A stretch of DNA of 62,445 nucleotides from Candidatus Nomurabacteria bacterium (GCA_031425235.1 JANPIZ010000003.1:1-62445), one strand, 5' to 3'. Shown: positions 35,810-51,917, numbered from the stretch's first letter. Made by a program: numbers and translations. Notes: a model not told the origin generated them from the letters alone.

Positions 35810-36045
35810 AGGTAAATAATATCATTACTCATGTTTTTTATCTATAAAATTTAATTACTAGCCATATCGGGTGAAGTAGGAACCTATTTCTCTGCAGTAA
35901 AATGAAATACATGCCAATGTTTAAGTACGCCAGATGCTGTTTTTCTATCTGCTTCTTCCGCCCGTCTGCGAAGTGCTGAGCTCCTCGAGCTAGAACCGTG
36001 GTTCGGTCAAGCCCTGGTTGGCTTTTCTAAATGATTTTTATCATA

Positions 36046-36552
36046 TCAGATCGACGCGTCTCGAGCGGCGCTTGAGTTGGAATGGAATAGCTTTTGGCAC
36101 TCTTCTCTCATAAATCCTTCCACAAGGATAAGCTGAGGATTACCTTTTTCCAAAACTTGTGCTGCGGTAATATTAATAGTGCGCCAAGTCCATTCTCGAG
36201 TTCCATTTGATTCTCGAAAGTTGATCATGTCCTGAAGTGTAGCGCCGAACACAATGCCTTCCATACGAGCCCATATAGCAGCAGAAGCGCACATGGGGCA
36301 AGGTTCGTGAGTTGTATAAAGTATGCAACCTTGTAGAAATCGGGAACCCAATTTTTTTGATGCTTCTCGGATAACAACCATCTCTGCATGTTGAGTTGAA
36401 TCCTGATCAATCTTCGCATGATTTGAATCGCATACGATTATTGTTTCATCTTTAACCACGAGAGCACCAATTGCATAGTCTCCAGCAGATCTTCCACGCT
36501 TCGCCTCATTAATTGCCATTTGCATTAGCACTGTATCAGGAGTTATTTTCAT
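36046..36552 (-). CDS. CMP/dCMP-type zinc deaminase (TadA/guanine deaminase-like)
   Basis: HAEMVVI and PCPMCASA motifs. The last ~12 codons (SNSSAARDASI) run into GC-rich repeat-like DNA. Confidence 0.8.
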   Translation of the reverse strand: MKITPDTVLMQMAINEAKRGRSAGDYAIGALVVKDETIIVCDSNHAKIDQDSTQHAEMVVIREASKKLGSRFLQGCILYTTHEPCPMCASAAIWARMEGIVFGATLQDMINFRESNGTREWTWRTINITAAQVLEKGNPQLILVEGFMREECQKLFHSNSSAARDASI

Positions 36553-36625
36553 GTCTGAATTATATCACGATGGAAATTCTTTGCTAAGCTATGGACCTCG
36601 TGCGCCCGGGCCGCATACGCTCCTC

Positions 36626-36733
36626 GGGCTAGTCCGAGCTGGCTGAATGACTCAGTCTAGAACCTTACCCTGTGAGACCCCACAAGCGTTCTTTGACGAC
36701 TTTTAATATACCAAATTGAGGTGTCTCAGTCAT
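36626..36733. repeat. GC-rich ~108-bp repeat, copy A, carrying a 22-codon ORF on the minus strand at 36665-36733
   Basis: About 93% identical to 38747-38854. The ORF reads MTETPQFGILKVVKERLWGLTG*. Confidence 0.85.
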
Positions 36734-36849
36734 GCTGTCTATAAGCAAGAACCGTTCTTGCTTAAGGTTATATAGTGCTGTGAGTATAGCATTTATTGAT
36801 AAATTATGTGTGATAGATAAAAAATCTTGCTGGTCATTTGATCTAGAAA

Positions 36850-38073
36850 CTACGGCAACTTCCCGACAAAGAATTTATTCTTTGAGCTCACCACCCATAT
36901 TTTCTGTTCAATATTCAAAGATAGAGAATTGTATACATTGATTTCTAATTCTTTAAGTACTGACTCTGCACCGGTCTTGAAATTTAGTTTGATTAGCGCA
37001 GTATTATCTATCGTTTGAGTTGGGCTCAAATGTTTGCGTATGTAAATAACAGAGTCCTGATCTACTATATGTAAGTTTTCTCGAATATATTTTGAAGGAA
37101 TAATTGCTGAAGTAGTTTTATCAAGGCCTCTATAAACACTAGCAGTAATAGTGCTGTCTAAATCTCCGTATCCCCTGACAAGAGCAAAAAGGTCCATTCT
37201 AGGCTCGTCTTTCATCCCACCCATTAACGAGCTAGAAGTATCTCCTAGATCTACAATTTCTCCTGTTTTTATATTCAATAAATAATCGTGCGAACTATCG
37301 TCCCATCCAGTGTTTATCCGAGCGACAGTATCAGGAATTACCCATGTGACATTTCGAATCGTACCTACAGGAATCGTATTTGGCATAAGTGGAGAGAAGG
37401 TTTTGGAATTAATATCCCAAATACCCAATTCTCTCCCGTTTCCTGCATCAAATATTTTTTTACCATTATCTTTAAAGCCCAACACGCGGTTACTATCCTC
37501 AAGCCATGCAGTTGCTCCGTCGTACTGAGTGGTAGAAATCGCTACAGTTTTTTTAGTATTCCGATCATAGAGCATTACCCCCTCCAAAGTGTTAAAAACA
37601 TATTTAGTACCGTCAGGTGAGAGAGCGCCTGCAAAAATATTACCATCGGTCGCAATGTTGTCGCTTTCGCCCGTAGCTATGTTATATAACACTAAATCTT
37701 TAGCCTTAAATAAAACCACTAAGCGCGAATCCTCGAACCCACGCAGTAAAACCCCCGGCAACTTTACTACTTCCCCCGTAGAAAGTTTTACTAGATATGT
37801 TTTCGCGGGGATCAAATCAGAATCTTTTATGCCAGTGAAAACAAAATATTTGCCGTCTGGAGAAAATGAGTGATACCCAATCTCATCAAGTTCTATTCCT
37901 TGTGTAATTAATCCATTAGTAAAAATTGGAAGTGTTGAAATATCTTGAGATTTCACCGCCGTCTCGTCATTTAAAAGAGGGCTTATGTTGTTGTCTTTTA
38001 AAACTTGCACAAACAGCAAAATTGCCACACCCAAGAACACGACAATTATTAAAATTTTGATTGAAATTTTCAT
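36850..38073 (-). CDS. Secreted TolB-like beta-propeller repeat protein
   Basis: Signal anchor MKISIKILIIVVFLGVAILLF and repeated FSPDGKYFVF / LSPDGTKYVF units. The ORF-track N-terminus (to 38163) reads through the 23-bp repeat and is probably spurious. Confidence 0.65.
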   Translation of the reverse strand: MKISIKILIIVVFLGVAILLFVQVLKDNNISPLLNDETAVKSQDISTLPIFTNGLITQGIELDEIGYHSFSPDGKYFVFTGIKDSDLIPAKTYLVKLSTGEVVKLPGVLLRGFEDSRLVVLFKAKDLVLYNIATGESDNIATDGNIFAGALSPDGTKYVFNTLEGVMLYDRNTKKTVAISTTQYDGATAWLEDSNRVLGFKDNGKKIFDAGNGRELGIWDINSKTFSPLMPNTIPVGTIRNVTWVIPDTVARINTGWDDSSHDYLLNIKTGEIVDLGDTSSSLMGGMKDEPRMDLFALVRGYGDLDSTITASVYRGLDKTTSAIIPSKYIRENLHIVDQDSVIYIRKHLSPTQTIDNTALIKLNFKTGAESVLKELEINVYNSLSLNIEQKIWVVSSKNKFFVGKLP

Positions 38074-38119
38074 TAGGTTTATAGTATACATTGCTTTCAA
38101 TAAATCCAAGTATGACCTG

Positions 38120-38142
38120 TCAGTCACCTGACTTAGCATATG
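38120..38142. repeat. 23-bp exact direct repeat, left copy (candidate att site)
   Basis: tcagtcacctgacttagcatatg is identical to 51895-51917. It contains the imperfect palindrome TCAGTCA-CC-TGACTTA. Confidence 0.85.
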
Positions 38143-38356
38143 GCTGCTGGCGTCCTTGAGCAAGAACCGTCATCAGGATTGCCCTATAAGGCTTTCGTAG
38201 CTAGTTTTATAATAGCATTTCGACGGTACTTGAGCACTATAAAATGAGATAGTGCATTACTGAATTTTTCTAATCTTCGATCTGAGAAATAATTCTTGAT
38301 AAACACCTCCCATGTTGGAGAATTTAAATGATCAAGTTGTATAACCTTCCAAGTTG

Positions 38357-38680
38357 CTAAATATTAATCCCAGCTTCTTTGAGTTCTTTAGTAACTTTTT
38401 GGCGTATATGATTATCACGATCTGCAAAACCATTAGTGAACCACACTACAAGACCACCTTCATAGTCTCTTTCTACTCTTATCCCTTGCATCCCGTCTTC
38501 TACAATAGGACAAGCTTGATCATTTTTAAAACTATCTTCCCACATTTCATCGGTATATCTCTCTATAACATCAAGGCCATTTTTTTTAAGCACGTCTTTA
38601 ATTATTCCTAGTTCTGTAAATTCTCTACGATACTTCTCTTTATTTATATCATGATTGGAAAAATTTTGCTCAATTGACAT
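38357..38680 (-). CDS. Hypothetical protein (107 aa)
   Basis: ORF only. No motif recognised. Confidence 0.45.
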   Translation of the reverse strand: MSIEQNFSNHDINKEKYRREFTELGIIKDVLKKNGLDVIERYTDEMWEDSFKNDQACPIVEDGMQGIRVERDYEGGLVVWFTNGFADRDNHIRQKVTKELKEAGINI

Positions 38681-38746
38681 ATTGTTTTACTCTTAACGTT
38701 TTTGAATAATTATTTAGATGTTTTTTCTTCGAACTAGCTATCTTTG

Positions 38747-38854
38747 AGCTAGCCCGAGGTGGCTGACTGACTCAGTCTAGAACCTTACCCTGTGAGACCC
38801 CACAAGCGTTCTTTGACGACTTTCAGTATACCAAATTGAGGCGTCTCAGTCATA
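38747..38854. repeat. GC-rich ~108-bp repeat, copy B, with the same 22-codon ORF at 38785-38853 (minus)
   Basis: See copy A. All 3 nucleotide differences inside the ORF are synonymous. Confidence 0.85.
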
Positions 38855-38911
38855 CTCATTCCAACCCCCACAAGCCTTATTTCACGTCAAAATGAGACAA
38901 ATAAGACAGGT

Positions 38912-40186
38912 TTAGGGCTTTTCAGGTGGTGTCTCATTCTTGGGGACATCAACCCATTTAAGCTGATCCATGATCTTGTAATCTTTCACCTTTTCTCTAG
39001 CTCCAGCAAACCTATACCAAGGAAAGATGGAACGATTTTCTTTACCGTCTATTATTTCCACACCCTGTTGTGATTCGGTAAGTTTCTTAGGAGGCAAGAT
39101 ATCTTTGTTGTCTTCAAGCATAAAAATCTGACAATGTTCACCCTTACCGTAACGAGTAATAATTCTGGGTTTAATAATCCCTTTTCTTACCCACTTGTAA
39201 AAAGTAGGACCCTTAATATTAAATCTGCTTTCAATATCATATTTTGAATACCAGCTATCTTCGTCTTTTGCGACAGATGCAGGTATTTCTCCTTCATCAA
39301 TAGCTTTCTGGCAGACCAGACATTTGATGCCCCATTCGTCATACCAATTATCGCCTTCGGGAGTACCGTCGCCACATATAGCACAGCGATAACCCGCACC
39401 TTCAAGATGGAATCCTTTCGGATTTGCTTTTAGTTTTTCTGCACGAGCTTTATCCTTTTCTTTCATCTCGTCTACAAATTTTCCAAGTTGTTCCAATCTC
39501 CATTTTTCTTCCTGCCATTTTTTACCAGCTTCTTCTGTCAGACAAAAACGATCTCTATCTTCTGCAAATTTTTCATCAAACTCTTCCTCGTGTGCGGAAG
39601 TTTTTTCTATCTCACTCTTTTTAACATATCCGCATTCTGAATTTGTGCAGATATATTCTGTAATAAATTTTTCTTTAGTACTTGCATCCTTGCAATCAAG
39701 TTTTCCTTTGCAATTCGGACAAGGGTTCGGTTTCGATCTCCATTCTTCACCGTCTGAGAAAAATGCTCTTCTTGGTAGGCACTGATTAGGACAATCGTAC
39801 ATAAAAAACATTCTGTCTTCTTTTCCTTCTTCGGACCATAGATTTTTGAATGTTGGTTTTAGAAGATTGCGACAGGTTAGACAGCGTATATTTTCTGGTG
39901 CTTGTACTGTTTCATACAATTCGTCTTTTCTTTGGTCAGCATCCATCCATTTTTGGATTGTTTCCTCTTTATTTAAATATCTTTCGCCTGTTTGAAACAT
40001 CATACTCCAATCAAGAGCCATTTTTGACATAGCGTCAAGCATTTTCTGTGTTGGTTTTTTACCCTCAATCAATGGAGGATTTTTGATTGGCTCTGAATGA
40101 AGGCGTTCTAGGTCTCGGCATCGTTCAACGGTATGGCGGTCGTAGAGATCGATGTAATGTTGCTTGTCTTTAAGATGCTTTTCCAT
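38912..40186 (-). CDS. Hypothetical multi-zinc-ribbon protein with a C-terminal excisionase-like HTH
   Basis: CxxC pairs: CLTCRN, CPNQC, CPNCKGKLDC, CTNSECG, CAICGDG...CLVCQ. C-terminal FYKWVRKGIIKP. Confidence 0.5.
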   Translation of the reverse strand: MEKHLKDKQHYIDLYDRHTVERCRDLERLHSEPIKNPPLIEGKKPTQKMLDAMSKMALDWSMMFQTGERYLNKEETIQKWMDADQRKDELYETVQAPENIRCLTCRNLLKPTFKNLWSEEGKEDRMFFMYDCPNQCLPRRAFFSDGEEWRSKPNPCPNCKGKLDCKDASTKEKFITEYICTNSECGYVKKSEIEKTSAHEEEFDEKFAEDRDRFCLTEEAGKKWQEEKWRLEQLGKFVDEMKEKDKARAEKLKANPKGFHLEGAGYRCAICGDGTPEGDNWYDEWGIKCLVCQKAIDEGEIPASVAKDEDSWYSKYDIESRFNIKGPTFYKWVRKGIIKPRIITRYGKGEHCQIFMLEDNKDILPPKKLTESQQGVEIIDGKENRSIFPWYRFAGAREKVKDYKIMDQLKWVDVPKNETPPEKP

Positions 40187-40651: not shown

Positions 40652-41977
40652 ATGTCAGAAAAAATACAAATTGTGCATGTATCTGTTAGTGAGTTGCGAG
40701 CTTCTGAATATAATCCTCGTAAGTGGGATAAAGAAGCAGAGAGTCAGTTGAAAGAAAGTATTAAAAGGTTTGGGATAGTCGATCCGTTGCTTGTGAACTC
40801 AGCGGAAGAAAGAAAAAATATTGTTATCGGTGGGCATTTCAGATTGTCGGTGATAAAAGAGTTAGATATAGAAGAAGTTCCCGTTGTATATATTAACATT
40901 CCCGACATTGAAAAAGAAAAAGAGTTGAACATCAGACTTAATAAAAACACTGGAGAATTTGATTGGGACATCCTCAAAACATTCGACGAAACATTCTTGT
41001 CAGATATTGGTTTTACTTCCGAGGATATCGATAGCATCTTTGAAGAAGATAAAGTCGAGGAGCAATTCGATCTAAACAAAGAGCTAGCGAAATTAAACAT
41101 CGAAAAGATCACTGTCGAAAAGGGCGATGTGTATGATTTAGATGGTTCACGAATTATGTGTGGCGATAGTACAGTAGAAGCAGATATGTTGAAGCTATGC
41201 GGTGAACATAAAATAGACATGGTCATGACTGACCCGCCTTATATTTTGGACTATCTCCATGGAAAAAGTCGCCAAGGCAAAGCGACTGAGGGATTTGGTG
41301 CGAAGAAAAATCGTCGCTACCTTGAAACAGATATCTTGCCTGATAATTTTACAGAATTATGGATGGCAAATGTCCATAAAGTACAAGCCGATAACTTTTC
41401 CATTATTTGCTACGAGAACTGGAAGAACATCAGAATTATCTGGAACGAGATGGATAAATATTGGAAAGTGAAGAATATGCTCGTGTGGCATTTAGCCAAT
41501 CGAAACCAAGGATATGCGGGTAAGCATAAATTCTTTTCCAAATATGATATCGCCATGGTAGCAACCAGTAACCCACATGACGGTTTAAAGACTGAGCCAG
41601 AAGAAGAACTACTTGAGAATGAATACAACACCGCTTTGTTTGCTATCTCTGGTTCTCCGCAATGGGAAAGCTATGGCAAAGGCAAGAAGTACTGTCCCAC
41701 TGACCACATAGAGCATTTAGCGGCTGACGAAAAATCCTCAGGTCAAGCAATTATCTTCGGTACTAAACCACTTGAAATATTGATCCCATATATCAAAGTT
41801 CTAACTACTAGGGATCAACTCGTTCTTGAGCCATTTGGTGGGTCAGGTTCAACCTTGATTGCATCCATAAAGCTAAAACGTCGATGCTTTATTATGGAAA
41901 AATCTCCTGTTTATACAGAAGTTATTCTTAATCGTTGGGAGAAATTTACTGGTAAGAAAAGAGTTAAGTTATCTTAA
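40652..41977 (+). CDS. ParB-like nuclease domain fused to an N6/N4 DNA methyltransferase
   Basis: N-terminal ...YNPRKWDKEAESQLKESIKRFGIVDPLLVN...GGHFR (ParB/Srx fold), then MTDPPY and EPFGGSGSTLIA motifs. Confidence 0.85.
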   Translation: MSEKIQIVHVSVSELRASEYNPRKWDKEAESQLKESIKRFGIVDPLLVNSAEERKNIVIGGHFRLSVIKELDIEEVPVVYINIPDIEKEKELNIRLNKNTGEFDWDILKTFDETFLSDIGFTSEDIDSIFEEDKVEEQFDLNKELAKLNIEKITVEKGDVYDLDGSRIMCGDSTVEADMLKLCGEHKIDMVMTDPPYILDYLHGKSRQGKATEGFGAKKNRRYLETDILPDNFTELWMANVHKVQADNFSIICYENWKNIRIIWNEMDKYWKVKNMLVWHLANRNQGYAGKHKFFSKYDIAMVATSNPHDGLKTEPEEELLENEYNTALFAISGSPQWESYGKGKKYCPTDHIEHLAADEKSSGQAIIFGTKPLEILIPYIKVLTTRDQLVLEPFGGSGSTLIASIKLKRRCFIMEKSPVYTEVILNRWEKFTGKKRVKLS

Positions 41978-42523
41978 ATGAAGCATAATTATGAAAAATC
42001 AAAATTTCTTGAGGCTCTTCGTGAGTCTCCAGTTGTCGCGCGCGCCGCCAAAAAGGCAGGTATTTCCAAAGCCACCATTTACCGATGGATGAAGGATGTA
42101 CCTGACTTTAGGCGTGCAGTTAATTCGGCAATAAGAGAAGGCAATGCACATACTGGCGAAATGGTAGAGATGGTATTGGTAAAGAGAGCAATGGAGGGAA
42201 ATTTCAACGCAATGAAATTTTACTTAATTAACAACAATCCTAAATATGCCCCTAAGCGTACGATTGACCCCACTCCAATCTTCGTGCATAAACATGATGA
42301 TGAGTCAGAACCTTGCCAACTTTGTATTCGTGTAGAAGTTGAGCAACGATTTAAGAATAAAGTAATGCTACGAGAAATAAATCAAGAGATTGAAAGATTA
42401 GCAAATCCAAAAACAGAAGCGGATAGAAAGGAAGCCAAAGAATTTATGGACAAGGTTCTGGAAATGAGTAAAGAACAACGAAGGAGAGAGCAAGTAGATA
42501 AAGGGCTTGAAAGTATTATTTGA
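41978..42523 (+). CDS. HTH DNA-binding protein (phage terminase-small-subunit-like / homeodomain-like)
   Basis: VARAAKKAGISKATIYRWMKDVPDFRRAV. Its start abuts the methyltransferase stop. Confidence 0.55.
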   Translation: MKHNYEKSKFLEALRESPVVARAAKKAGISKATIYRWMKDVPDFRRAVNSAIREGNAHTGEMVEMVLVKRAMEGNFNAMKFYLINNNPKYAPKRTIDPTPIFVHKHDDESEPCQLCIRVEVEQRFKNKVMLREINQEIERLANPKTEADRKEAKEFMDKVLEMSKEQRRREQVDKGLESII

Positions 42524-43049: not shown

Positions 43050-43145
43050 AGATTGTAGCGAGTTTTTAAAGTCTCAGTCAGATAGACAAAGAGCCCTCCG
43101 CCCGAGCGATGATCCGAAGACCATCCATACCAGTTTCCCGATATG

Positions 43146-43192
43146 ACTCGCTACAAGTACCCTGACGAAGGGTTCTTTATCTTGTAGCGAGT
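43146..43192. other. 12-bp stem hairpin; the arm sequence recurs at 43053-43066
   Basis: actcgctacaag ... cttgtagcgagt. ttgtagcgagtttt is also found directly upstream of the 42516-43049 start. Confidence 0.6.
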
Positions 43193-43334
43193 TTTATGAC
43201 CATATCCTTAGAGATTCTAAAGGGGTTAGGTCTCAACTTATTAATTTGTAATGAGATTATACCTCCTTTTTAGAGGCTTTGCCATACTACCTTAGATCAT
43301 GTGGGTTGTGTAGTCGAGTTACCAACAGGCGGTA

Positions 43335-43904
43335 TTAGTAAAAACTAACCCCGCTTTTCTTTAAACTGTTTCTAATCTCTAAGTAATCAGGCATTATTTT
43401 GGCAACTAAATTCCAAAATTTCCTTGAATGATTAAATTCTTTTAAATGGCATAGTTCGTGGACGATAATATAGTCAGCCAATCTTGGGGGCAATAAAGCT
43501 ATTTTATAATTAAAGTTTAAATTACCTTTTCTTGAACAACTACCCCAACGAGTTTTTTGATTCTTTATATTTATTTTATTAAATTTAAAACCACAAATTT
43601 GATTGTAATATTCAATACGTTGCTGGGCTAGGAACAATGCTCGATCTTTGTATTCCATGTATTCTTTTTTAGTGCTTTTCTTAAATACTTGTCCTGAAAT
43701 ACTTTTAAAGTATGCCATTTGATCAATAACCCATTGTGATTTTCGTATAATAAATTGCTCAATAATGTTATTAGTGATATTCCGTGGTGCTGTTACTATA
43801 AAATTTCCATCACAATAGATCGCAAGTCTCATTCGTTTTGCACGTTTGCTAATCTTAAGAGTGTAATCAATTTTCTGTTTATGAAGTTCTATATGTTTTT
43901 TCAT
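43335..43904 (-). CDS. YgjP/DUF45-family zinc metallopeptidase
   Basis: RWGSCSRKGNLNFNYKIALLPPRLADYIIVHELCHLKEFNH. Starts 2 nt after the hsdR stop. Confidence 0.8.
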   Translation of the reverse strand: MKKHIELHKQKIDYTLKISKRAKRMRLAIYCDGNFIVTAPRNITNNIIEQFIIRKSQWVIDQMAYFKSISGQVFKKSTKKEYMEYKDRALFLAQQRIEYYNQICGFKFNKINIKNQKTRWGSCSRKGNLNFNYKIALLPPRLADYIIVHELCHLKEFNHSRKFWNLVAKIMPDYLEIRNSLKKSGVSFY

Positions 43905-43906
43905 AC

Positions 43907-46819
43907 TTAGAATTTTTTAATTACCACATCAATAAGACGGTTGAGATATTTGTGGAAATCAGAAATCTTAATTTTATTCTTATAGTCTTTTAAAATAAGC
44001 TCTTGCAAGGTACGCTTTGCCTCCTTAATAAATTCTTCTCTTTTAGAAGAATCTTGCCATCCTTCGTCTAGGACATTTTCTAAACGTGAGGTCATTTCTT
44101 TAATGAATTCTTTTACAACATCTTTATCAGATTCGGTTAAAAATTCTTCTGAAATTACATAGAGGCCATATTCATGGAGTGTGTAGCCAAGTTCTTTTGC
44201 TTCTTCTGTCTTTGTCTTAATATCGTTAAGGAGTTCGTAATATCTTTTAATGCGTTCAGCAAGGTCAATTTGATGCTTCTCAAACTCTGCTCGGATAGCA
44301 ATCAATCGCTCCCCAAACCCCTTAAATGCTGGATGTGTATCAATGTTTATTGATATCTCACGCTTCAGCATTTTCTCAAGATTTAGTGCTTTTTCTTCTT
44401 CTGGAAGTTTATCTAGTTTATTTAGTGTCGCTAGATCATGAATATTTAACTCTCTGAAATTCTTGGTTATACCCTCATAGTCAATTTTGTCTTGAATAAG
44501 ACTTTTTATTTTTACACCATATTCAGCGAGTGAAAAAGCATCAATCCCTTCAGCTTGGAATTCCTTACTAAATGCAAGATAAAAACTAGTAACCCATTCA
44601 AACTTTCTAAGGTAATCAATCAAGAATGGATCAGGAGAAAGGATTTCAAATAACATCTTAAGGCGACCGTATTTATCTTTAAAGAATTGCTGTTTACTTT
44701 GATTATCAATAAATATTTTCAAGCATCTACGCAGATTATCGATTGAGGGATCTTCAATATTAACTCCCTCAAAAAGACTCATAACTTCGCTAAGTACTGT
44801 TATAAAGTCTTGTTTTAGTCGATCAATATTAATCATTGCACTATCGACAACACTTTCATCAAAATTGAGAGCATCGTACAGATTTTTAGTTACGCCATAG
44901 TAGTCGATAATCTTTCCACACCCTTTGTTCGGATATACTCGGTTTGTACGAGCAATAGCCTGAAGGAGATTGTGGTCTCTTAGTGGTTTGTCTAAATACA
45001 TAACTTGTTCAACTGGTGCATCAAAACCAGTTAAAAGCATATCGCAAACGAGCAGAAACTTTAGAGGGTGGTTGGGGTCTTTGAATTGTTCAATAACTTT
45101 CTCTCTTTTTTGTTTATTTGTATTATATTTTTTAAGGTCATCACTTTCACTATTAGGATCACCAGGAGAATAGACTACCTCTGACCATTCAGGCGGTACA
45201 AGTTTATCAAGTAAATCTTTATACTTTGCTGTTGCTTCTCGGTCATAGCAGACAATTTGTGCCTTGAAACCATTTGGAAGCACATAAAGCTTGTAATGTT
45301 CAACAATGTCTTGAATTACAGCTTCCATACGCTTGTCGAGTTTTACTAGTGCTTCTTTCTTTCCATATTTTTTAGTTAGAACTTCTTTTTGGGCAGTATT
45401 TAGATCATTTGTTAACTCATTAAATTGTTTGTCTACCTGTTCTTCGTCAATAAAAAACTTAGATAGTCGTGCCTCATAAGTTACTGGGAGAGTGGCACCG
45501 TCATCTATAGCTTGTTGAATAGAATAGTAATCTAAATATCTTTCACCATCTTCTCCGAAGTTTCTATGAGTATTAAGGGTTAACTTGTCGATCGGTGTTC
45601 CTGTGAATCCAAAGAAGAAAGCATCTCTGAATGCATTACGCATCTTGATAGCAGAAATTCCTTCATTATCTCGATGAGCTTCATCAGATAAAACTATGAC
45701 GTTACCTTCGATTTCTTCTATTTCTTCAAGCTCGCTGAATTTCTGAATAGTGGATATGAAGATACCTCTGTCTGCACCTTTAATCTTTTTCTCAAGGTCT
45801 TTGCGAGATTCAACACGAATCAAATTTTGTCCACCCCATGCGTCAAACTCTTCAAAAACTTGATCATCAAGATCAATGCGATCTATTAGAATAAATACTT
45901 TAGGATTTTTAAGTTCAGGATCGTAGCGAAGTTTCCACGCAGTAAAAAACATTGTAAGTGTTTTTCCAGATCCTTGTGTGTGCCAGATGAGTCCTTTTTT
46001 ATGATCACCACCCTTTACTCTATCAACCATCTTATTAGTAGCGTAAAATTGCTGATATCTAGTGATCTTTTTTGTGATACCGTCTTTTTTCTTTTCAAAT
46101 ACAATAAAGTTTTTGATGATATCAAGTAATTGTTCTTTACTTAATAGATAATGCAGAGTTGAATCTAGCTCATTTTCAAACAGTTTAGTTTCGATATGCG
46201 GATCTTCTCGCCAAGTAAGGAAATATTGTTTGGGAGCAAATGTAGTTCCATAAACAGTTTTAAGTCCATCGGTTGCAATATTGAAACAATTAGTCAGAAA
46301 CAACTTGGGTGCAACTCTTTCGTATCGCTTGATTTGATCGATAGCATTTTCAAAATTAACAGAACTAGAGGCAGTTGGGCTTTTTGCTTCAATATCGGAT
46401 ACAGGTAATCCATTAAGAAATACCAATACATCAGTTCTAATGTTTTCAGTAACTCCTTCAAAATAAAATTGATTAGTGATAACGAAGCGATTGTTCTCAT
46501 GATTATCAAAGTCCACTAGCTTATAATCACGACTTTTGCCAGTTTCTGGATCTTTTATATTTACTCCATTTCGTAATGCTAAAAGGAAAGCTTCATTGGT
46601 ATCAAGTTTCTTTACTTCTCGAACAATAGTCGAAGCGACATCTTCATTCACTTTGTTTATTGTTTGAACTGCCTCTAGTAAATGAGGGACAATGATATAT
46701 TCATTTTCAAATGAACGAAGTTTGGAAAATGCTTCAGCGGTAATATACTCATATCCAAGCTTTCCTTGCATGAATTTTATAATGTGATTTTCAATTGTGT
46801 ATTGTTCGTTGAATTTCAT
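43907..46819 (-). CDS. hsdR: Type I restriction enzyme R subunit
   Basis: 970 aa with helicase motif I (HTQGSGKTLTMFF), motif II (VLSDEAHR) and an HsdR-type N-terminal nuclease region. Confidence 0.9.
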   Translation of the reverse strand: MKFNEQYTIENHIIKFMQGKLGYEYITAEAFSKLRSFENEYIIVPHLLEAVQTINKVNEDVASTIVREVKKLDTNEAFLLALRNGVNIKDPETGKSRDYKLVDFDNHENNRFVITNQFYFEGVTENIRTDVLVFLNGLPVSDIEAKSPTASSSVNFENAIDQIKRYERVAPKLFLTNCFNIATDGLKTVYGTTFAPKQYFLTWREDPHIETKLFENELDSTLHYLLSKEQLLDIIKNFIVFEKKKDGITKKITRYQQFYATNKMVDRVKGGDHKKGLIWHTQGSGKTLTMFFTAWKLRYDPELKNPKVFILIDRIDLDDQVFEEFDAWGGQNLIRVESRKDLEKKIKGADRGIFISTIQKFSELEEIEEIEGNVIVLSDEAHRDNEGISAIKMRNAFRDAFFFGFTGTPIDKLTLNTHRNFGEDGERYLDYYSIQQAIDDGATLPVTYEARLSKFFIDEEQVDKQFNELTNDLNTAQKEVLTKKYGKKEALVKLDKRMEAVIQDIVEHYKLYVLPNGFKAQIVCYDREATAKYKDLLDKLVPPEWSEVVYSPGDPNSESDDLKKYNTNKQKREKVIEQFKDPNHPLKFLLVCDMLLTGFDAPVEQVMYLDKPLRDHNLLQAIARTNRVYPNKGCGKIIDYYGVTKNLYDALNFDESVVDSAMINIDRLKQDFITVLSEVMSLFEGVNIEDPSIDNLRRCLKIFIDNQSKQQFFKDKYGRLKMLFEILSPDPFLIDYLRKFEWVTSFYLAFSKEFQAEGIDAFSLAEYGVKIKSLIQDKIDYEGITKNFRELNIHDLATLNKLDKLPEEEKALNLEKMLKREISINIDTHPAFKGFGERLIAIRAEFEKHQIDLAERIKRYYELLNDIKTKTEEAKELGYTLHEYGLYVISEEFLTESDKDVVKEFIKEMTSRLENVLDEGWQDSSKREEFIKEAKRTLQELILKDYKNKIKISDFHKYLNRLIDVVIKKF

Positions 46820-46820
46820 A

Positions 46821-48095
46821 TTATTTCTTTGATGTCTTTTTCTTCTTGGCTTTATCCTTCTTTTTTGTAAACTGATTTAAAAGTATTTTTGCTTTTACTA
46901 GTACTTCGTCAAAACATATTATTTCTATATTTCTAAGATTCTGTCTAAATAAATCGAAATTTTTTCTTGAGTCCTTGGGGATATCACCAATCTTTCCAGC
47001 AACAATAATACATCTCGGTTCAAATACTTCGAAATCGCCCGTAGCCACATTTGAGTAATTTCTTAAAAGAGTATGTTTTTGATCAAGCACTTGGTTAATT
47101 GCACCAGAAATACCAGAAGAAATTGGATATATTTTCCCAGCTTTTCTGTATGCAGTTTTATGTAAAAGTGGTGCTTTATGAGTTTTAATCTCTATAATCG
47201 TGGCATTGTCAGTTAAATTATTTTTATAAATAAAGTCAGCATATCGTGCCCCCTTATCATTGCCTTTTTGACCACCAACATAGTATTCATCTTGAAATAA
47301 AAAATGAGGAGCGGCGAAAAGATAGGAGAATATCCAAGAGTTATCTTTAAAGAATTTATGCCATTCTCCCTCGAGATTTTTACCAGTCTTTTTTGATAGA
47401 ATTTTTTCAAATTGAGCAAGCACTTTATCAATATAGACTTGATCTATTTTTTCCTTGGTTCGAATTAATGCAACAGCATTCATGTCATAGTTTTGAATTT
47501 GATTTTGAGTAAAATCTAAAATTGAGGCAGAATCATTGTCTGATAGTTTTGCTCCAGAAGATTTAACTTCTTGTAAAATTCCCTTAATTGTCCCAGATAC
47601 ATACGGAATCTTTTGAGATTTAAGCTTAAGCTCTTTAGAATCAGCTAAAAGGTTATTAATTGTTATTTTTAGATCTTTAGAGTGTGTAAGATTCTTAGGT
47701 CTGAGAGTGCTATAGATTTTTTTATAATCATCATCATTCAAAATAAACTCTCCCTTTTTAAGCTTAAGACTTGTTAGTTTTTTAGAAATAACAATTTTTG
47801 TAACTTGAGGAAATTTATCGTTAACAACTGAAAGGAGAGAGGAGGTGTCATAGGTAAAACCGTAACCACGAGTCATTGCTCTTAGGCCTTTTAAGTCAGC
47901 ACGAGCGACTCCATCAAAATGAATTTCTGAAATGAGAGTATATTTTTGCTTACCAAATCGGTCAAATGGATAAACAATCTCATAAAGTTTTTTCTTAAAG
48001 ACTTCTCTCGATTTAACCTCGAAATCAGCCTCAGTGTTTTTTGCAAAGTAAATCTCTTTTGTTTTTAAGTTTTCTTTGATAATTTCAGTAGTCAT
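46821..48095 (-). CDS. DUF4263 (Shedu SduA-like) PD-(D/E)xK nuclease with an unrecognised ~240-aa N-terminal domain
   Basis: C-terminal half: WHKFFKDNSWIF...GARYADFIY...ATIIEIKTHKAPLL...GAINQVLDQ...PRCIIVAGK...NIEIICFDEVL. Sits 1 nt from the hsdR start and 7 nt from the hsdMS stop. Confidence 0.7.
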   Translation of the reverse strand: MTTEIIKENLKTKEIYFAKNTEADFEVKSREVFKKKLYEIVYPFDRFGKQKYTLISEIHFDGVARADLKGLRAMTRGYGFTYDTSSLLSVVNDKFPQVTKIVISKKLTSLKLKKGEFILNDDDYKKIYSTLRPKNLTHSKDLKITINNLLADSKELKLKSQKIPYVSGTIKGILQEVKSSGAKLSDNDSASILDFTQNQIQNYDMNAVALIRTKEKIDQVYIDKVLAQFEKILSKKTGKNLEGEWHKFFKDNSWIFSYLFAAPHFLFQDEYYVGGQKGNDKGARYADFIYKNNLTDNATIIEIKTHKAPLLHKTAYRKAGKIYPISSGISGAINQVLDQKHTLLRNYSNVATGDFEVFEPRCIIVAGKIGDIPKDSRKNFDLFRQNLRNIEIICFDEVLVKAKILLNQFTKKKDKAKKKKTSKK

Positions 48096-48102
48096 GTAAC
48101 TA

Positions 48103-50373
48103 TTATTTTTTAGTCATAATATCTTGCATCAGTGCTTTTTTCAGAGTCTCAGCCTTTTGAGTAATATCTTTAATATTTTTTAAATAAGAATCCATTGTAG
48201 AAAATAGCCTAGCTATATCTTTCTGTTCTTTTAGAGGCGGAATTGAGATGGGCATAGAGTATATGATAGGCAATCGAAGAGATTTTACAGTACTTCCAAC
48301 AGCATTATCTGCGAAGAAATTTCTGTTAGCAAAAATAAAATAAAAAAGATACAAAGGGTCTACATCTTTATTTTTTGTGGAAATTGCGTAAGCTCGTTGA
48401 TGTAAATCAAACTTACCACTGTAATAGCGAGGGATAAATTCTGCCCCTTCTCCAGGTAATATTATGGCTGTTTTATCAAACAAATATTTATTACTTCTTT
48501 TTATTATTATAGATCTATCAAAAAGAGGATATTCTCCATTATCCACAGCGTCTTGAGAATTAGTTTTTCCATTTTTTATGTCAGCAATTTCTCCAAGAGT
48601 TGTCTTTGTCCATCCCTTTCTATTAGTTAAATCTACCAATATGTCGTTAAATACTTCCCAATTATTTTTTAAGGCATTTGTATATAAATTTTCTGATTTA
48701 TTTAAGTCTTTCTTTGACTGTGAAATATCAAGAATTTGATCTTCAATGTCTGAACTAATATAAAGTTTTGTCTTTAGGATGTAGTCTTTGTCTTTAATTT
48801 CAGTAAGGTGAACTACTTTTGCATAATTTGCTTTGTCGGTATAAGTATCATACGTTTTAATAATTTTCTGTATGTCTTGGGTTCTTAATGAGTTTTGATT
48901 TTTTCCTTCAGAAAAATCTTTTTCTGCATCAATTATTAATATTTTTCCTTTATGATTTTCTGGTTTATTTGTATTTAAAATAAGAATAACCGCTGGAATT
49001 GTTGTTCCATAGAAAAGTTTTGATGGGAGTGCGATGACTGCATCAATTAAATCATTTTTTAGAATCTGTTCACGAATACGACCTTCGGCACCCCCACGAA
49101 ACAACACACCGTGCGGAAGTACTATTCCAGCTCTTCCATTCTGATTCATCGATTTAATAATATGAAGTACAAAAGCATAGTCTGCATTTTTATCTGGCGG
49201 AGCATCATATCCTTCAAGGCGACCAAACTTTGTTTTGAATGCTTCATATTCCCAGTCTTTTATTGAGTAAGGTGGGTTAGCTACTACTATGTCAAAAGTT
49301 TGTAAATTCCCTTGTTGATTAAGAAATTGAGGATTTGCGAGCGTGTCACCTCTACGGATATCAGCGCTATCGAGTCCATGAAGAAACATGTTAATTTTTG
49401 CAATCGCAAAAGTAGCAAGATTCTGTTCTTGTCCATAAAGATAAAGTGTCTTTGCAATTTTTTCTCCAGACTTTTGTTTAAGATAATCATAAGCTTCTAA
49501 AAGAAAACCGCCTGATCCAACAGTAGGGTCGTAGATATGATCTTTCTGATGGGGTTTAAGAATCCCCATGATAACTCTTTCAACTTCTCGAGGAGTATAA
49601 AACTCGCCACCTTTCTTACCCGCATCGGCTGCGAATTGTTTTATAAGATATTCATATGCATCACCCAATAAGTCTGAACTAATATAAGTATTACCGAAAT
49701 TGTATTGTGAAAAGTGGTTAATAAGACGTTGAAGTGTTTCGTTGGGAAAACGATCTTTATTGGCGAAATCAAGATCTTCAAAAATCTTATCGAGTTTGGG
49801 ACTATTTGCATTTGCTAACTTATCAAAAATATCATTTAGCTTCTGTCCGATGTTTTCAGCTTGTTCAGTAATCTTTTCCCATCGACAATCTTTTGGTATC
49901 TGAAAACGGTGATTGTAGTCAGCACGAGCAATCGTTACATCGTTATATTCTTTCATGACGGTATTGTATTCTTCATCCCACACGTCACTCATTCGTTTAT
50001 AGAACAAAAGACCAAAAATATATTTTTTATAATCAGAGCTGTCAATTTTCCCTCGGAGAATGTCAGCACTCTTCCAAAGGAATGATTCAAGTTGGGGTAG
50101 AGTGAGCTTACTACCCATTTTATCGACGATAGCTTCTATGTCTTGAGGGCGATATTTACGATCACCTCGCTTCCCAGCTCGAAGTGGCACAAGAGTACCG
50201 TCCTTTTCCCAGTTGCGGAGAGTGTCTGGGTGAATGGAGAAAATATCTGCTACTTGGCTGATAGAGAGTAGTTCTGGCATTCCTTTAAGTTTTGCTTGTA
50301 TATCTTTCCTCATTTGTATAAATAGGAGTCTATCAGACTCTAAATACAAAGTCAAGTGTTCATAGGTTTTCAT
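48103..50373 (-). CDS. hsdM: Fusion of an excisionase/MerR-type HTH, type I N6-adenine methyltransferase (HsdM) and a single-TRD half HsdS
   Basis: LSISQVADIFSIHPDTLRNWEKDG (HTH). FYTPREV, DPTVGSGGFL and VANPPYS (methylase). C-terminal TRD plus the conserved LPPLKEQKDIARLFSTMD helix (HsdS). Confidence 0.85.
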   Translation of the reverse strand: MKTYEHLTLYLESDRLLFIQMRKDIQAKLKGMPELLSISQVADIFSIHPDTLRNWEKDGTLVPLRAGKRGDRKYRPQDIEAIVDKMGSKLTLPQLESFLWKSADILRGKIDSSDYKKYIFGLLFYKRMSDVWDEEYNTVMKEYNDVTIARADYNHRFQIPKDCRWEKITEQAENIGQKLNDIFDKLANANSPKLDKIFEDLDFANKDRFPNETLQRLINHFSQYNFGNTYISSDLLGDAYEYLIKQFAADAGKKGGEFYTPREVERVIMGILKPHQKDHIYDPTVGSGGFLLEAYDYLKQKSGEKIAKTLYLYGQEQNLATFAIAKINMFLHGLDSADIRRGDTLANPQFLNQQGNLQTFDIVVANPPYSIKDWEYEAFKTKFGRLEGYDAPPDKNADYAFVLHIIKSMNQNGRAGIVLPHGVLFRGGAEGRIREQILKNDLIDAVIALPSKLFYGTTIPAVILILNTNKPENHKGKILIIDAEKDFSEGKNQNSLRTQDIQKIIKTYDTYTDKANYAKVVHLTEIKDKDYILKTKLYISSDIEDQILDISQSKKDLNKSENLYTNALKNNWEVFNDILVDLTNRKGWTKTTLGEIADIKNGKTNSQDAVDNGEYPLFDRSIIIKRSNKYLFDKTAIILPGEGAEFIPRYYSGKFDLHQRAYAISTKNKDVDPLYLFYFIFANRNFFADNAVGSTVKSLRLPIIYSMPISIPPLKEQKDIARLFSTMDSYLKNIKDITQKAETLKKALMQDIMTKK

Positions 50374-50503
50374 AGGTCTGCATACTAACTCACCTTGTAA
50401 AATAAGGGTAATTAGTTATCAACAAATGCATCCTAGACTCCTAAGAGCCGTTGCGTCATTCCTTAGGTGTAGGTCAATTATCAACCAAACACAAGGAATA
50501 TAT

Positions 50504-51799
50504 ATGAAACATAAGCAAGTAGAGCAAGCCCCCACGGCACCCCTTAAATACTGTCTGTATTCTAGGAAATCCACAGAGGCTGAGGATAAGCAGGCTCTCT
50601 CAATAGAATCTCAGGTAAAGGAGATGCAAGCTCTAGCAGAGCGAGACCATCTCCATATAGTAGAGATAAAGCGAGAGGCACACTCGTCGAAAGAAGTTGG
50701 GCAAAGACCTGTATACAATGAAATGCTAGCAGAGATCAAACAAGGCAAGTTCAACGCCATCCTTACTTGGGCACCTGACAGATTAAGTAGAAATGCAGGA
50801 GACTTAGGGTCAGTGGTGGATTTGATGGATCAGGGAAAGTTAATTGAGATAAAAACATATGGGCAGAAATTTACAAACAATCCAAACGAGAAGTTCCTCC
50901 TGATGATTCTAGGATCACAAGCGAAACTGGAGAATGATAATAAGGCAGTGAATGTACAGCGAGGTCTACGAACAAGGTGCGAGATGGGATGGAGACCAGG
51001 AGTTGCACCGACTGGCTACCTGAATGAAAAGCATGTAGATAAAAAGTGCCAATGCAGGATTGATCCAAAACGAGCACCAGTTATTAAGCAGATGTTTGAG
51101 AAAGTCGCATCTGAACAATGGAGTGGAAGAAAAGTATATCGATGGCTAAGAGAAATTAATTTCAAAACGCATAGAGGAAAGCCATTAGTGTTAGCAAATA
51201 TTTATATCATCTTAAGAAATCCATTTTATTATGGTGACTTTGAATATCCAAAAGGTGGCGGTCAATGGTATACAGGAAAGCAGACACCGATTATAGATAA
51301 AACACTTTACGATAGAGTGCAGATGACTCTTAATCAGAATTATATTCCCAAAACTGAGAGTAAAGAATTCGCATTTACTAAACTCATACACTGTGGCTAC
51401 TGCGGATCAGGCATATCGGCTGATGAGAAATTTAAGAAACTTAAAGATGGTGGAGTGAATCGCCATGTCTACTATTTCTGTACGAAAGCAAGGAACATAG
51501 ACTGCAAAAATCCAGCTATCAATGAGCCAAACTTAATAACAGAACTTATTGAATTGATGGATAAGGTAGACTTAGATGAGCTTGGAATTAAAACAAGAAT
51601 CGAGGATGAGATAAGTAGGTTTAATAAATTTAGAACTGGAGTATTAGGGCATAAGCAAGAAAAAGTATCACTGGATATAGATGTCCGAAACTACACGAAG
51701 TACTTACTCAAAGATGGAACACTAATGGAGAAAAGAGAACTACTATCTTGTATGAAAAGTAAACTAATTATAAAAGAAAAGAAAGTCTGTTTCGCATAA
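50504..51799 (+). CDS. Large serine recombinase
   Basis: YCLYSRKSTEAEDKQALSIESQ (catalytic Ser region), DRLSRN, a recombinase domain and a CGYCGSG...YYFC zinc ribbon. ATG at 50504 preferred over 50426. Confidence 0.85.
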   Translation: MKHKQVEQAPTAPLKYCLYSRKSTEAEDKQALSIESQVKEMQALAERDHLHIVEIKREAHSSKEVGQRPVYNEMLAEIKQGKFNAILTWAPDRLSRNAGDLGSVVDLMDQGKLIEIKTYGQKFTNNPNEKFLLMILGSQAKLENDNKAVNVQRGLRTRCEMGWRPGVAPTGYLNEKHVDKKCQCRIDPKRAPVIKQMFEKVASEQWSGRKVYRWLREINFKTHRGKPLVLANIYIILRNPFYYGDFEYPKGGGQWYTGKQTPIIDKTLYDRVQMTLNQNYIPKTESKEFAFTKLIHCGYCGSGISADEKFKKLKDGGVNRHVYYFCTKARNIDCKNPAINEPNLITELIELMDKVDLDELGIKTRIEDEISRFNKFRTGVLGHKQEKVSLDIDVRNYTKYLLKDGTLMEKRELLSCMKSKLIIKEKKVCFA

Positions 51800-51838: not shown

Positions 51839-51894
51839 GTTCTGAATACTGCGCTCAGCAGGTATGCAATGACGGGATAGTGCTCGTATGCGTA

Positions 51895-51917
51895 TCAGTC
51901 ACCTGACTTAGCATATG
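51895..51917. repeat. 23-bp exact direct repeat, right copy (candidate att site), 4 nt from the tRNA-Gln 3' end
   Basis: Identical to 38120-38142. Flanking similarity extends to about 38110-38150 and 51885-51927, with indels. Confidence 0.85.

Follow-up and report, generated by a model that had tools for sequence, protein, structure and literature searches.

A repeated 94-nt module as a candidate attachment-site arm of tRNA-Gln-targeting prophage-like islands in Patescibacteria

Introduction

In genomic islands inserted at tRNA genes, the recombinase stands beside the tRNA, and the direct repeats at the borders contain the tRNA 3' end or a likeness of it; such islands classically use tyrosine integrases. 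In the course of island accretion, older remnants are pushed outward and att-derived repeats become interleaved with cargo genes. Large serine recombinases (LSR) of the phiC31, Bxb1 and TP901-1 type normally need only sites of about 40-50 bp without arm sites. Integrons build arrays of ORFs and repeats in one orientation beside a site-specific recombinase. The promoter-stem-loop (PeSL) cassettes of T4-type phages and the phage morons are short conserved intergenic promoter modules that stand between small variable genes and mediate modular exchange.

The DNA analysed here, referred to as the window, is a stretch of 62,445 nt from Candidatus Nomurabacteria bacterium (GCA_031425235.1, JANPIZ010000003.1). 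It contains a repeated, conserved unit of about 94 nt (93-94 nt), called Y, which is shared with other genomes as positions 38760-38852 and 36640-36732. L-numbers (L001, L014, L029 and so on) denote homologous loci in other genomes; run X1 is the source run of the window, from freshwater sediment, and run X9 another metagenome run, both distinct from the X1 and X2 repeats described below. No description of Y or of the islands that carry it was found in the literature.

The Y islands are similar to tRNA-gene islands in having the recombinase beside a tRNA and direct repeats in which the tRNA 3' end is contained or mimicked (X1/X2 of the window, L029, L014, L025 and L041), as well as in the apparent outward displacement of older remnants with att-derived repeats between cargo genes. 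They differ in using a large serine recombinase, in possessing a 94-bp module more than 90% conserved between genomes, of which the identity segment is just the last 25-45 nt, and in a crossover word that is outside the tRNA, immediately downstream. This word, X (AAGTCA-nn-TGACT), forms an imperfect palindrome whose size and symmetry fit attP/attB sites of the phiC31, Bxb1 and TP901-1 type, and the window recombinase has the Resolvase, Recombinase and zinc-ribbon domains of that class. Unlike the att sites of large serine recombinases, Y has a further conserved stretch of about 70 bp with two co-varying direct words, and the att repeats of the Y islands share 11-45 nt instead of a 2-bp core plus little else.

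Integron cassette arrays are resembled by the one-orientation order ORF, repeat, ORF, repeat next to a site-specific recombinase, and Vibrio VCRs by the similarity of the repeats within one array. However, Y lacks the R''/R' consensus, the hairpin symmetry and an IntI-type tyrosine integrase, and its arrays are short (2-4 copies). Compared with PeSL cassettes and morons, Y is likewise a short conserved module with a candidate promoter, repeated between small variable genes of a phage-like element and able in principle to mediate modular exchange, but it is longer, is tied to an att end and to one target tRNA, and has no promoter motif in many members. With MITEs it shares small size, unrelated flanks and, in part of its copies, imperfect inverted termini, and differs in lacking target-site duplications, dispersal and a transposase and in its fixed genomic context.

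Y copies and neighbouring genes in the window

The original prediction described two GC-rich repeats of about 108 bp and some 93% identity, and these proved to be real. Copy A (36626-36733) and copy B (38747-38854) are 93.6% identical. In the self-comparison of the window by blastn, 36628-36736 aligned with 38748-38856 (93.6% over 109 nt, E 6e-41), and the repeat search of the window paired 36621-36736 with 38741-38856 (91% over 116 nt). A core 32-mer has two exact occurrences in the window versus 0 expected, and GC content is 0.51-0.60 in the copies versus about 0.26-0.43 in the flanks. Logan contigs from the source run back both copies, each with its own flanks, so the repeat is no assembly artefact.

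Both copies lie on the minus strand and are classified as type 1. The Y core of copy B (38760-38852) was found with an nhmmer E-value of 3.5e-26, and three other genomes have copies of 92-96% identity to it with unrelated flanks; the E-value for copy A (36640-36732) was 1e-24. The cores agree at 89 of 93 positions. About 14 nt more are common to A and B on the 3' side, and the similarity of the two copies spans 36626-36736 and 38747-38856. In Logan contigs of other metagenomes, the similarity to copy B stops at 38762 and 38853. The sequences upstream of the ATG in the two copies are unrelated and about 40 nt past the stop hold four differences, as had been claimed.

Two diverged copies of type 2 are also present on the minus strand. 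Y3 (35974-36068, nhmmer E 1.6e-10) overlaps the last 22 nt of a deaminase ORF. Y4 (38145-38236) reached E 1.8e-5 when 2.7 Mb were searched; it shares 61% identity with B and 68% with Y3, and its 3' end (...CAGCAGCC) lies immediately against the att-like repeat X2. All four copies are thus confined to 35.97-38.85 kb, less than 3 kb, where they alternate with minus-strand genes. Neither the 32-mer count nor nhmmer found further copies elsewhere in the 62-kb window.

The genes between the copies are a cytidine/tRNA-adenosine-type deaminase recognized by Pfam (36046-36552, between A and Y3), a PD40/beta-propeller protein, also with a Pfam match (36850-38163, between X2 and A), and a 107-aa cargo ORF matching no Pfam or PHROG family (38357-38680, between B and Y4), all on the minus strand. 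The distance from the ATG in each copy to the start of the next minus-strand gene, predicted as about 170-180 nt, was measured as 181 and 173 nt. The listed N-terminus MLSQVTD... of the beta-propeller protein is a read-through of X2, the likely true start being the methionine of MKISIKIL... near 38073; the same artefact occurs in L001.

The island gene preceding Y encodes a 424-aa zinc-finger-rich protein (38912-40186, minus strand) that has no match in Pfam or PHROGs. Its homologues stand directly before Y in L036 (63% identity) and L085 (48%). Between this gene and copy B lies an upstream module, CTGTCTTATTTGTCTCATTT, with tandem GTCTYAT words (38890-38909, minus strand) and an inverted partner at 38929-38938. 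The module is common to L014, L008, L044, L085, L040, L052, L034 and L029, and in L043 and L081 the GTCTYAT word is altered to GTTCCGT with the inverted partner changing along.

The Y family in other genomes

Thirty or more Y homologues come from other genomes of Patescibacteria (CPR), a group of tiny bacteria. The Y profile matched in at least 20 of the loci gathered via the ParB-N/DNA methyltransferase, which in the window occupies 40652-41977 on the plus strand (Pfam, PHROGs), serves as the marker of the island family and has 211 relatives among the species genomes. In these loci (at least 20) Y is always on the strand opposite to the methyltransferase and 0.5-4 kb upstream of it. There are often 2-3 copies per locus with 1-2 ORFs between them, and the array ORF, Y, ORF, Y is found in the window and in L014, L015, L029, L033 and L034.

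Near-identical copies are rare among assembled genomes. Exact-pattern scans of 185,579 species genomes found them in only three other species, and the scans of the genome, metagenome and viral collections together yielded just these three additional copies. The metagenome matches to Y are the same contigs as the genome matches. Near-identical Y is also present in at least 20 soil, groundwater and drinking-water runs. Y copies have 92-96% identity in genomes whose tRNA-Gln genes share only 82%, which is taken as a sign of horizontal spread. The copies are mosaic: SNPs in the 5' part place A with L001 and B with L014/L008, and the 3' flank places A with B and L001 with L014. Within the DNA compared, neither a methyltransferase nor a recombinase was found near Y in L001 and L008; island decay would account for this.

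Some other identities of the repeat were considered and rejected. A 10-mer, GAACCTTACC, is common to Y and 16S rRNA and was treated as chance, self-BLAST giving no Y/16S repeat. A template/variable repeat pair of a diversity-generating retroelement (DGR) was dismissed because A and B differ at few positions, and not at adenines alone. Domain V of a group II intron was considered for the GC-rich stretch following copy A, and the sequence as read forms no proper hairpin.

The island and its att-like repeats

The recombinase of the window is a large serine recombinase of 457 aa (50426-51799, plus strand; Pfam Resolvase, Recombinase and Zn_ribbon_recom; PHROG 95, integrase). It is convergent with a tRNA-Gln gene with the anticodon CTG (51920-51992, minus strand; ARAGORN and Rfam), the proposed integration target. 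The small-terminase-like HTH protein (41978-42523, plus strand; Pfam, PHROG 4044) follows the methyltransferase, and the defence cargo comprises a type I restriction system and Shedu. At least 45 loci have a recombinase homologue downstream of the methyltransferase and, after it, a convergent tRNA; at least 16 loci with a tRNA in view show the window's arrangement of recombinase and tRNA.

The X1 repeat (51886-51925, minus strand) is the tRNA-Gln-proximal att-like repeat between the tRNA and the recombinase gene. X2 (38110-38150, minus strand) duplicates the tRNA-Gln 3' flank and is interpreted as the att site at the distal end of the resident island. The two are 88% identical over 41 nt with an exact stretch of 23 nt, and X2 is an imperfect palindrome, AAGTCA-GG-TGACT. 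The pair flanking the resident island is X1/X2 and not A/B. Copy B is located 600 nt inside the island end, with the cargo gene and Y4 between. The X word was also compared with the 5' end of Y as its possible diverged form; the resemblance was not significant (-0.7 bits).

Y is restricted to islands of the tRNA-Gln type. It is present in five of seven such loci as against none of nine of the tRNA-Ser or tRNA-Met type, and its position in tRNA-Gln-type islands is always the end far from the recombinase. Direct repeats that include or adjoin Y flank these islands. In L029 the island from recombinase to methyltransferase is bounded by two copies of the final 45 nt of Y (17960-18004 and 6686-6730, 91% identical); in L014 the 11-nt CCAGCCAACAT ends both the tRNA-Gln and the terminal Y copy; and in the window Y4 stands beside the 41-nt X2, A and B not being a flanking pair. 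At L025 and L041, of the tRNA-Ser type, 18-19 nt of the tRNA-Ser 3' end recur on both sides, which identifies the two as integrated islands whose far junction lies on the Y side.

The remaining junctions are of several kinds. In L049 and L085, Y is directly convergent with the recombinase gene and takes the place held elsewhere by the tRNA, an attP-like arrangement. In run X9, a type 1 Y 3' end is followed by AGTGC and the X word, matching the junction tRNA-Gln, AGTGC, X of L001. When the last 24 nt of Y were compared with 68 tRNAs, the window's own tRNA-Gln was the best match (17/24); for the 3' end of Y4, tRNA-Gln was not top-ranked among tRNAs. Y resembles the tRNA-Gln 3' end only modestly, and this likeness was noted post hoc. 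Finally, a minor contig in the source run (depth 3 versus 14) joins the upstream flank of B to the downstream flank of A via about one Y length, without the 2.1 kb between them.

Y as a putative end module of the islands

The fixed position and orientation of Y, together with the flanking repeats, suggest that it is an attachment-site arm or end module of tRNA-Gln islands and that A and B stem from two successive insertions at one hotspot. We regard this as moderately probable. Prophage-like islands with the LSR, the ParB-methyltransferase and the small terminase would insert just 3' of tRNA-Gln in Patescibacteria. The integrated order would then be tRNA-Gln, crossover word X, recombinase, variable defence and phage genes, small terminase with ParB-methyltransferase, a few leftward genes, Y and the junction. 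The last 25-45 nt or so of Y appear to imitate the tRNA-Gln 3' end (GGTTC...CAGCC), and with the palindromic X word AAGTCA-nn-TGACT just downstream they may constitute the recombination site. The recombinase would thus use the Y 3' end. If so, a new island could land at the Y that an older one left behind, and repeated insertion and decay would build an array of alternating Y copies and genes.

Applied to the window, this scheme would assign B and Y4 to the resident 13.8-kb island (38.1-51.9 kb). Copy A would close an older, decayed insertion composed of X2, the beta-propeller gene and A, a layout like that of L001 (tRNA-Gln, X, ORF, Y), and Y3 would close a still older one. The scheme gives no reason for the conservation of 94 bp.

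Promoter-like motifs and direct words

Copies A and B both contain a -35-like ATGACT, a 17-nt spacer and TGgTATACT. The extended -10-type motif occurs in A, B, Y3 and Y4, and in 12 of 28 non-redundant members TAnnnT is found at the aligned -10, usually after TG. In the attachment-arm reading, this part of Y is a putative promoter that points outwards, present in roughly half of the family. Y could also be seen as a mobile promoter or regulatory cassette, whose promoter and leader of about 60 nt drive the downstream cargo, the repeats giving homology for cargo swapping by ordinary recombination, in a manner close to that of the PeSL cassettes. A co-directional ORF downstream of about two thirds of the copies agrees with this, as do the arrays of alternating ORFs and Y in the six loci named above and the source-run contig without the A-B DNA. 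However, the -10 motif is missing in more than half of the family, promoter-like sites in the region are not above the shuffled expectation, and about one third of the copies point at a convergent gene, so that there is nothing to drive (L001, L036, L049, L081, L085, L029). Such a cassette would also leave the restriction to tRNA-Gln-type islands and the tRNA-like 3' end unexplained, and we consider it doubtful though worth keeping in view. It overlaps with the attachment-arm reading, and the two do not exclude each other.

Y also contains two GACYGAG(AC) words 74 bp apart, which change together: their identity is 5.48/7 within a copy versus 4.73/7 between copies (permutation p 0.00025, relatedness uncorrected). 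These words are candidate binding sites for an island-encoded protein.

RNA and fold analyses

The proposal that the repeat is a cis-regulatory or otherwise structured RNA found no support. Rfam gave no match at the gathering score or at E up to 10 for the whole window, the region or the element alone. RNAalifold on the Y homologues returned no consensus structure, only a 4-bp hairpin without compensatory change, and the mean pair probability of Y is below 0.2 on either strand (0.19 at the highest). The inverted termini and the other candidate stems pair in 50-57% of cells; for the candidate helices, of which three were tested explicitly, the figures are 50-69%. The all-against-all column-pair scan of the alignment showed noise only, with no convincing covariation. 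ARAGORN found nothing in Y at default or with -ps80, and lower thresholds led to inconsistent calls only. An identity as tRNA or tmRNA was rejected, there being no Rfam match and the constrained cloverleaf fold being no better than the free fold; the likeness to tRNA-Gln is limited to the 3' 24 nt.

Y might still be a true small RNA gene that has little stable structure or works through base-pairing, perhaps with a tRNA-like 3' end, at which islands would land while carrying a replacement copy; Y is here likened to the tRNA and tmRNA genes at which other islands land. The two ends of copy B form a perfect 7-bp stem, after which G-CCA follows, promoter-like TATAAT and GACCCC lie upstream in L043 and L034, clean terminators follow Y in L034, L036, L081, L029 and L091, and Y takes the place of the tRNA beside the recombinase in L029, L049 and L085. 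Yet the terminal stem, which pairs in 56% of cells, is not intact in A, L001, L011 and the majority of diverged members, terminators follow only 7 of 33 copies and several are bidirectional, no RNA run containing the Y sequence was found, and the empty Rfam, tRNA and tmRNA searches and the absent consensus fold point the same way. A small RNA gene is therefore unlikely.

Mobile-element readings

Y can also be viewed as a miniature integrative element, that is, two attachment arms fused with nothing between them. The recombinase would move such an element in trans and each copy would be a new landing site, giving a serine-recombinase gene-capture array with a logic like that of the integron and different parts. 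The GACYGAG words would then be arm-type accessory-protein sites, which are not known for large serine recombinases. This seems quite improbable. An integron attC site was rejected, Y having no RYYYAAC/GTTRRRY pair and no hairpin and the neighbouring recombinase being of the serine type.

A recombination or mobile module had been among the explanations first offered, with a MITE as one form of it. The former stands insofar as Y is tied to the ends of serine-recombinase islands, and the latter does not. A plain MITE would be a small transposon that cannot move by itself, bears terminal inverted repeats and owes its dispersal to a transposase. The imperfect inverted termini (TGACTGA...TCAGTCA) and the sharp similarity ends with unrelated flanks in several genomes and metagenomes are in keeping with one. 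The termini first described, ATGACTGAG...CTGAGTCAT, were found in copy A, but copy B ends in ...CAG; the shorter pair TGACTGA/TCAGTCA matches fully in B and imperfectly in A, L001 and L011, and pairs in 53-56% of cells family-wide. Against transposition, none of the five near-identical copies has a target-site duplication, no transposase is nearby, the four window copies are clustered within 3 kb with near-identical relatives in so few of the scanned genomes, and position and orientation relative to the ParB-methyltransferase are fixed. A MITE is thus highly unlikely.

The 22-codon frame

The minus-strand ORFs 36665-36748 and 38785-38871 each include an ATG-started version of 22 codons, 36665-36733 in copy A and 38785-38853 in copy B, and both are judged spurious. 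The frame itself was correctly reported, as was the silence of its three differences (ACA/ACG and TTA/CTG), two of them within one codon. In the five near-identical copies the start codon is ATG, ATG, CTG (L001), GTG and ATG, with the non-synonymous changes T>I, V>S and R>C. In many diverged homologues CCx or ACC stands at the start position, i.e., there is no start codon, and in 18 homologues in-frame stops fall at about codon 10, 14, 15, 18, 23 or 28 or are absent. Column identity at codon positions 1/2/3 is 0.52/0.58/0.52 (0.61/0.63/0.61 in the six strongest members), which is nearly equal and means that there is no wobble signal. Conservation extends about 28 nt past the stop, and no consistent ribosome-binding site is present ahead of the frame.

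Disruption of the frame in additional copies is what the original prediction itself had named as speaking against a peptide, and the homologues show it. A conserved 22-residue micropeptide or leader peptide, MTETPQFGILKVVKERLWGLTG, is hardly credible in the face of it, although the loosely similar translation xTETxQFxILKxxKEPLxGLT is readable in several homologues and the A/B differences are silent, three changes being too few to weigh.

Significance

The analysis removes a false small-protein candidate and illustrates that a few silent differences between two copies can mislead. It also defines a widespread family of Patescibacteria prophage-like islands that integrate at tRNA genes, combine a serine recombinase with a ParB-methyltransferase and a small terminase, and have defence genes as cargo. 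Y provides a sequence marker for the far boundary of the tRNA-Gln-targeting subfamily, which helps to delimit mobile DNA in genomes that are hard to annotate. Large serine recombinases are genome-engineering tools, and if the 94-bp module is needed for recombination, it would extend what the site of such a recombinase can look like.

Repeats A and B and Their Homologues

The repeats A (36626-36733) and B (38747-38854) were recovered by a repeat search as 36621-36736 and 38741-38856, with 93.6% identity over 109 nt in BLAST, and a core 32-mer occurs exactly twice in the window against none expected. As the original prediction described, both copies are GC-rich (0.51-0.60 versus 0.26-0.43 in the surroundings) and carry on the minus strand a 22-codon frame with three silent A/B differences inside it and four differences after the stop codon; their upstream sequences are mutually unrelated. 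Both copies, each with its own flanks, are supported by contigs of the sole public run containing the region.

A and B represent one subtype (89 of 93 positions identical) of a conserved unit of about 94 nt, designated Y. When 185,579 species genomes and the JGI metagenome collection were scanned for exact patterns, only three further near-identical copies came up, from Nomurabacteria (L001), Minisyncoccia (L008) and Paceibacterota (L011, the same as L012 and L014). The near-identical copies share 91-96% identity over 93-94 nt, from TGAYTGAGAC to CAGCMA, and have unrelated flanks. Y is better conserved than the tRNA gene, because the tRNA-Gln genes of L001 and the window are only 82% identical; this points to horizontal spread. 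The Logan index shows Y with hardly any change in at least 20 metagenomes from soil, groundwater, freshwater and drinking water, the similarity ending at 38762 and 38853, or at about 38900-38908 where an upstream module is also carried.

Diverged homologues were sought by profile in a set drawn via the ParB-methyltransferase (80 Patescibacteria loci and 80 viral contigs). At least 20 of the genome loci contain them, without exception on the opposite strand to the methyltransferase and 0.5-4 kb upstream of its gene, often in two or three copies separated by one or two ORFs. In the window, this search added Y4 (38145-38236, minus strand, E 1.8e-5) and Y3 (35974-36068, minus strand, E 1.6e-10), a second subtype about 60% identical to A/B and 68% between its two members. 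The order, all on the minus strand, is ORF424, B, ORF107, Y4, the att-like repeat X2, ORF437, A, deaminase, Y3 and pilin.

The sequence around the copies has peculiarities of its own. Copy A is followed at 36595-36640 by a very GC-rich stretch, GGACCTCGTGCGCCCGGGCCGCATACGCTCCTCGGGCTAGTCC, with a CCCGGG palindrome, which is absent after the other copies; its first ~14 nt are common to the sequence after B. Just upstream of B, 21 nt from the interior of Y are repeated at 38866-38886 with 86% identity (CCCCACAAGCCTTATTTCACG), and comparable Y-like fragments precede the Y copy of L014, which suggests partial duplications at the junction.

Resident Island and Other Features of the Window

The large serine recombinase gene (50426-51799) is convergent with the tRNA-Gln gene (51920-51992). 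The 41-nt repeat X1 after tRNA-Gln (51886-51925) recurs as X2 (38110-38150) with 88% identity and 23 nt exact; this direct repeat marks a 13.8-kb integrated island. The island (38.1-51.9 kb) contains the ParB-methyltransferase gene (40652-41977) with a small-terminase-like gene. It also carries defence cargo at 43335-50373, encoding a type I restriction system whose R subunit has 970 aa, a 424-aa Shedu SduA-C protein, a YgjP-like metallopeptidase and a 756-aa protein in which MerR-HTH and HsdM are fused to one HsdS target-recognition domain.

A LOOT RNA (Rfam RF03000, 77 bits, E 9e-13) lies within the island at 43108-43232 on the minus strand, flanked by a 177-aa ORF and the gene of the YgjP peptidase. 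The motif goes unmentioned in the main text of its presumed source, the 2017 paper on 224 candidate structured RNAs. The MLSQVTD... N-termini of the 437-aa ORF (38110-38163) and of the 228-aa ORF of L001 (2809-2830) are a translated att-like X word and probably not true protein starts. Elsewhere, the 16S rRNA gene (396-1950, minus strand) is complete and without insertions, bracketed by a 36-nt inverted repeat (92%; 213-247 and 1965-2000) that is probably a processing stem. The two copies of a 60-nt direct repeat (3515-3574 and 11362-11421, 88% identity) are about 7.8 kb apart, and a cobalamin riboswitch aptamer is found at 19818-19972 on the plus strand (37 bits versus the Rfam gathering score of 31.5).

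Association of Y with tRNA-Gln Islands

In at least 45 loci a recombinase homologue lies downstream of the methyltransferase. Contigs that extend far enough show a convergent tRNA beyond the recombinase: Gln (7 loci), Ser (8) or Met (1). Y occurs in five of the seven Gln loci and in no Ser or Met locus. The tRNA-Ser islands L025 and L041 are bounded by 18-19-nt repeats that copy the 3' end of tRNA-Ser, on the same side as Y in the Gln type. The direct repeat (91%) bracketing the recombinase-to-methyltransferase island of L029 consists of the final 45 nt of Y. In L014, whose island is the nearest relative of the one in the window (89% identity in the recombinase, 90% in the methyltransferase), tRNA-Gln and the terminal Y copy both end in the 11-mer CCAGCCAACAT. 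The 3' end of Y4 (...CAGCAGCC) abuts X2 just as tRNA-Gln (...CCCAGCC) abuts X1, and in a groundwater contig of run X9 a type-1 Y 3' end runs into AGTGC and then the X word, exactly as tRNA-Gln does in L001. The last 24 nt of Y match the window tRNA-Gln at 17 positions, the best among 68 tRNAs in all DNA fetched.

In L049 and L085, Y is directly convergent with the recombinase gene, the layout expected of a putative joined (attP) form. The short unit formed by X2, ORF437 and A in the window recurs in L001 (tRNA-Gln, X, ORF228, Y) and L029 (tRNA-Gln, ORF230, Y, island); all three may be read as decayed older insertions.

A GC-rich motif, GGGA(Y)TCGAAAG(M)CGGAGG, is found in L025 (region 3384-3520) and downstream of Y in L034, L070 and L088. 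In L025, an island of the tRNA-Ser type, the motif begins a ~130-nt stretch that terminates in the tRNA-Ser-like repeat and whose ends can pair; this may be what corresponds to Y in the tRNA-Ser type, or else a structured element in its own right.

Structured RNA, Peptide and MITE Readings

The inverted termini had raised the possibility of a structured RNA. Copy B has a perfect 7-bp end-to-end stem followed by G-CCA, and opposite-strand single-sequence folds are mildly better than shuffles. The inverted termini, an acceptor-like register and a central hairpin each pair in only 50-69% of cells, a marginal excess over controls, and A, L001, L011 and most relatives lack an intact version of the stem of B. 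Sense-strand folds are no better than shuffles (z 0.13 and -1.0), averaged pair probabilities do not exceed 0.19 on either strand, and RNAalifold on 18 homologues gave just a 4-bp hairpin without compensatory change. Rfam returned no match to Y, whether at the gathering score or with E relaxed to 10, and ARAGORN no tRNA at normal thresholds, nor on Y at -ps80. With neither a family match nor a consensus fold, this reading was rejected.

A 22-codon micropeptide or leader peptide was rejected as well. Among near-identical copies the start codon is ATG, ATG, CTG, GTG and ATG, the frame has T>I, V>S and R>C replacements, and no common ribosome-binding site precedes it. Diverged homologues have in-frame stops at differing codons or none, and often lack the start. 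Column conservation is flat over codon positions (0.52/0.58/0.52), and conservation of Y extends ~28 nt past the stop. The A/B differences within the frame number only three, two of which fall in the same codon; that all are silent is a coincidence of small sample size.

Of the proposal of a recombination or mobile module, the linkage of Y to recombinase islands stands, and a plain MITE is rejected, target duplications and dispersal both being against it.

Possible Exchange between Copies and Architecture of Y

A minor contig of the source run (depth 3 versus 14, 3 mismatches in 34 nt) joins the downstream flank of A (36612-36645) to the upstream flank of B (38888-38909) via 101 nt, so in a related strain a single Y stands in place of the Y, ORF107, Y4, X2, ORF437, Y of the window. 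Near-identical copies also show mosaic SNP and flank patterns, and both observations fit exchange at or within Y. In L014 (5990-6033), the terminal type 2 Y is directly followed by a partial second copy of its own 5' ~35 nt (GAGCTTGCTCATGATATGTCGTC...), which crossover between two Y-like sites would produce.

The 5' third of Y resembles an extended -10 promoter (ATGACT, 17 nt, TGgTATACT), with TAnnnT at the aligned -10 position in 12 of 28 non-redundant members. Y contains two direct copies of a GACYGAG word, 74 bp apart, that vary jointly (GACTGAG/GACTGAG, GACCGAG/GACCGAG, GCTCAAG/GCTCAAG, GCTCGAG/GCTCGAG); word identity is 5.48/7 within versus 4.73/7 across copies (permutation p 0.00025, not corrected for relatedness). 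A similar word lies in X after the tRNA (window, L014, L015, L087), but its profile score is not significant. Island-borne Y copies have tandem GTCTCAT words and an inverted partner upstream; in L043 and L081 the words become GTTCCGT and the partner switches too, which fits either a protein operator or a hairpin.

On balance, A and B appear to be copies of a non-coding module found at the end of serine-recombinase islands that target tRNA-Gln; successive insertions at a single hotspot would have multiplied it here, by a recombination mechanism that we infer from anatomy and comparison. Conservation of the full 94 bp could be due to an outward promoter, to accessory-protein sites or to both.
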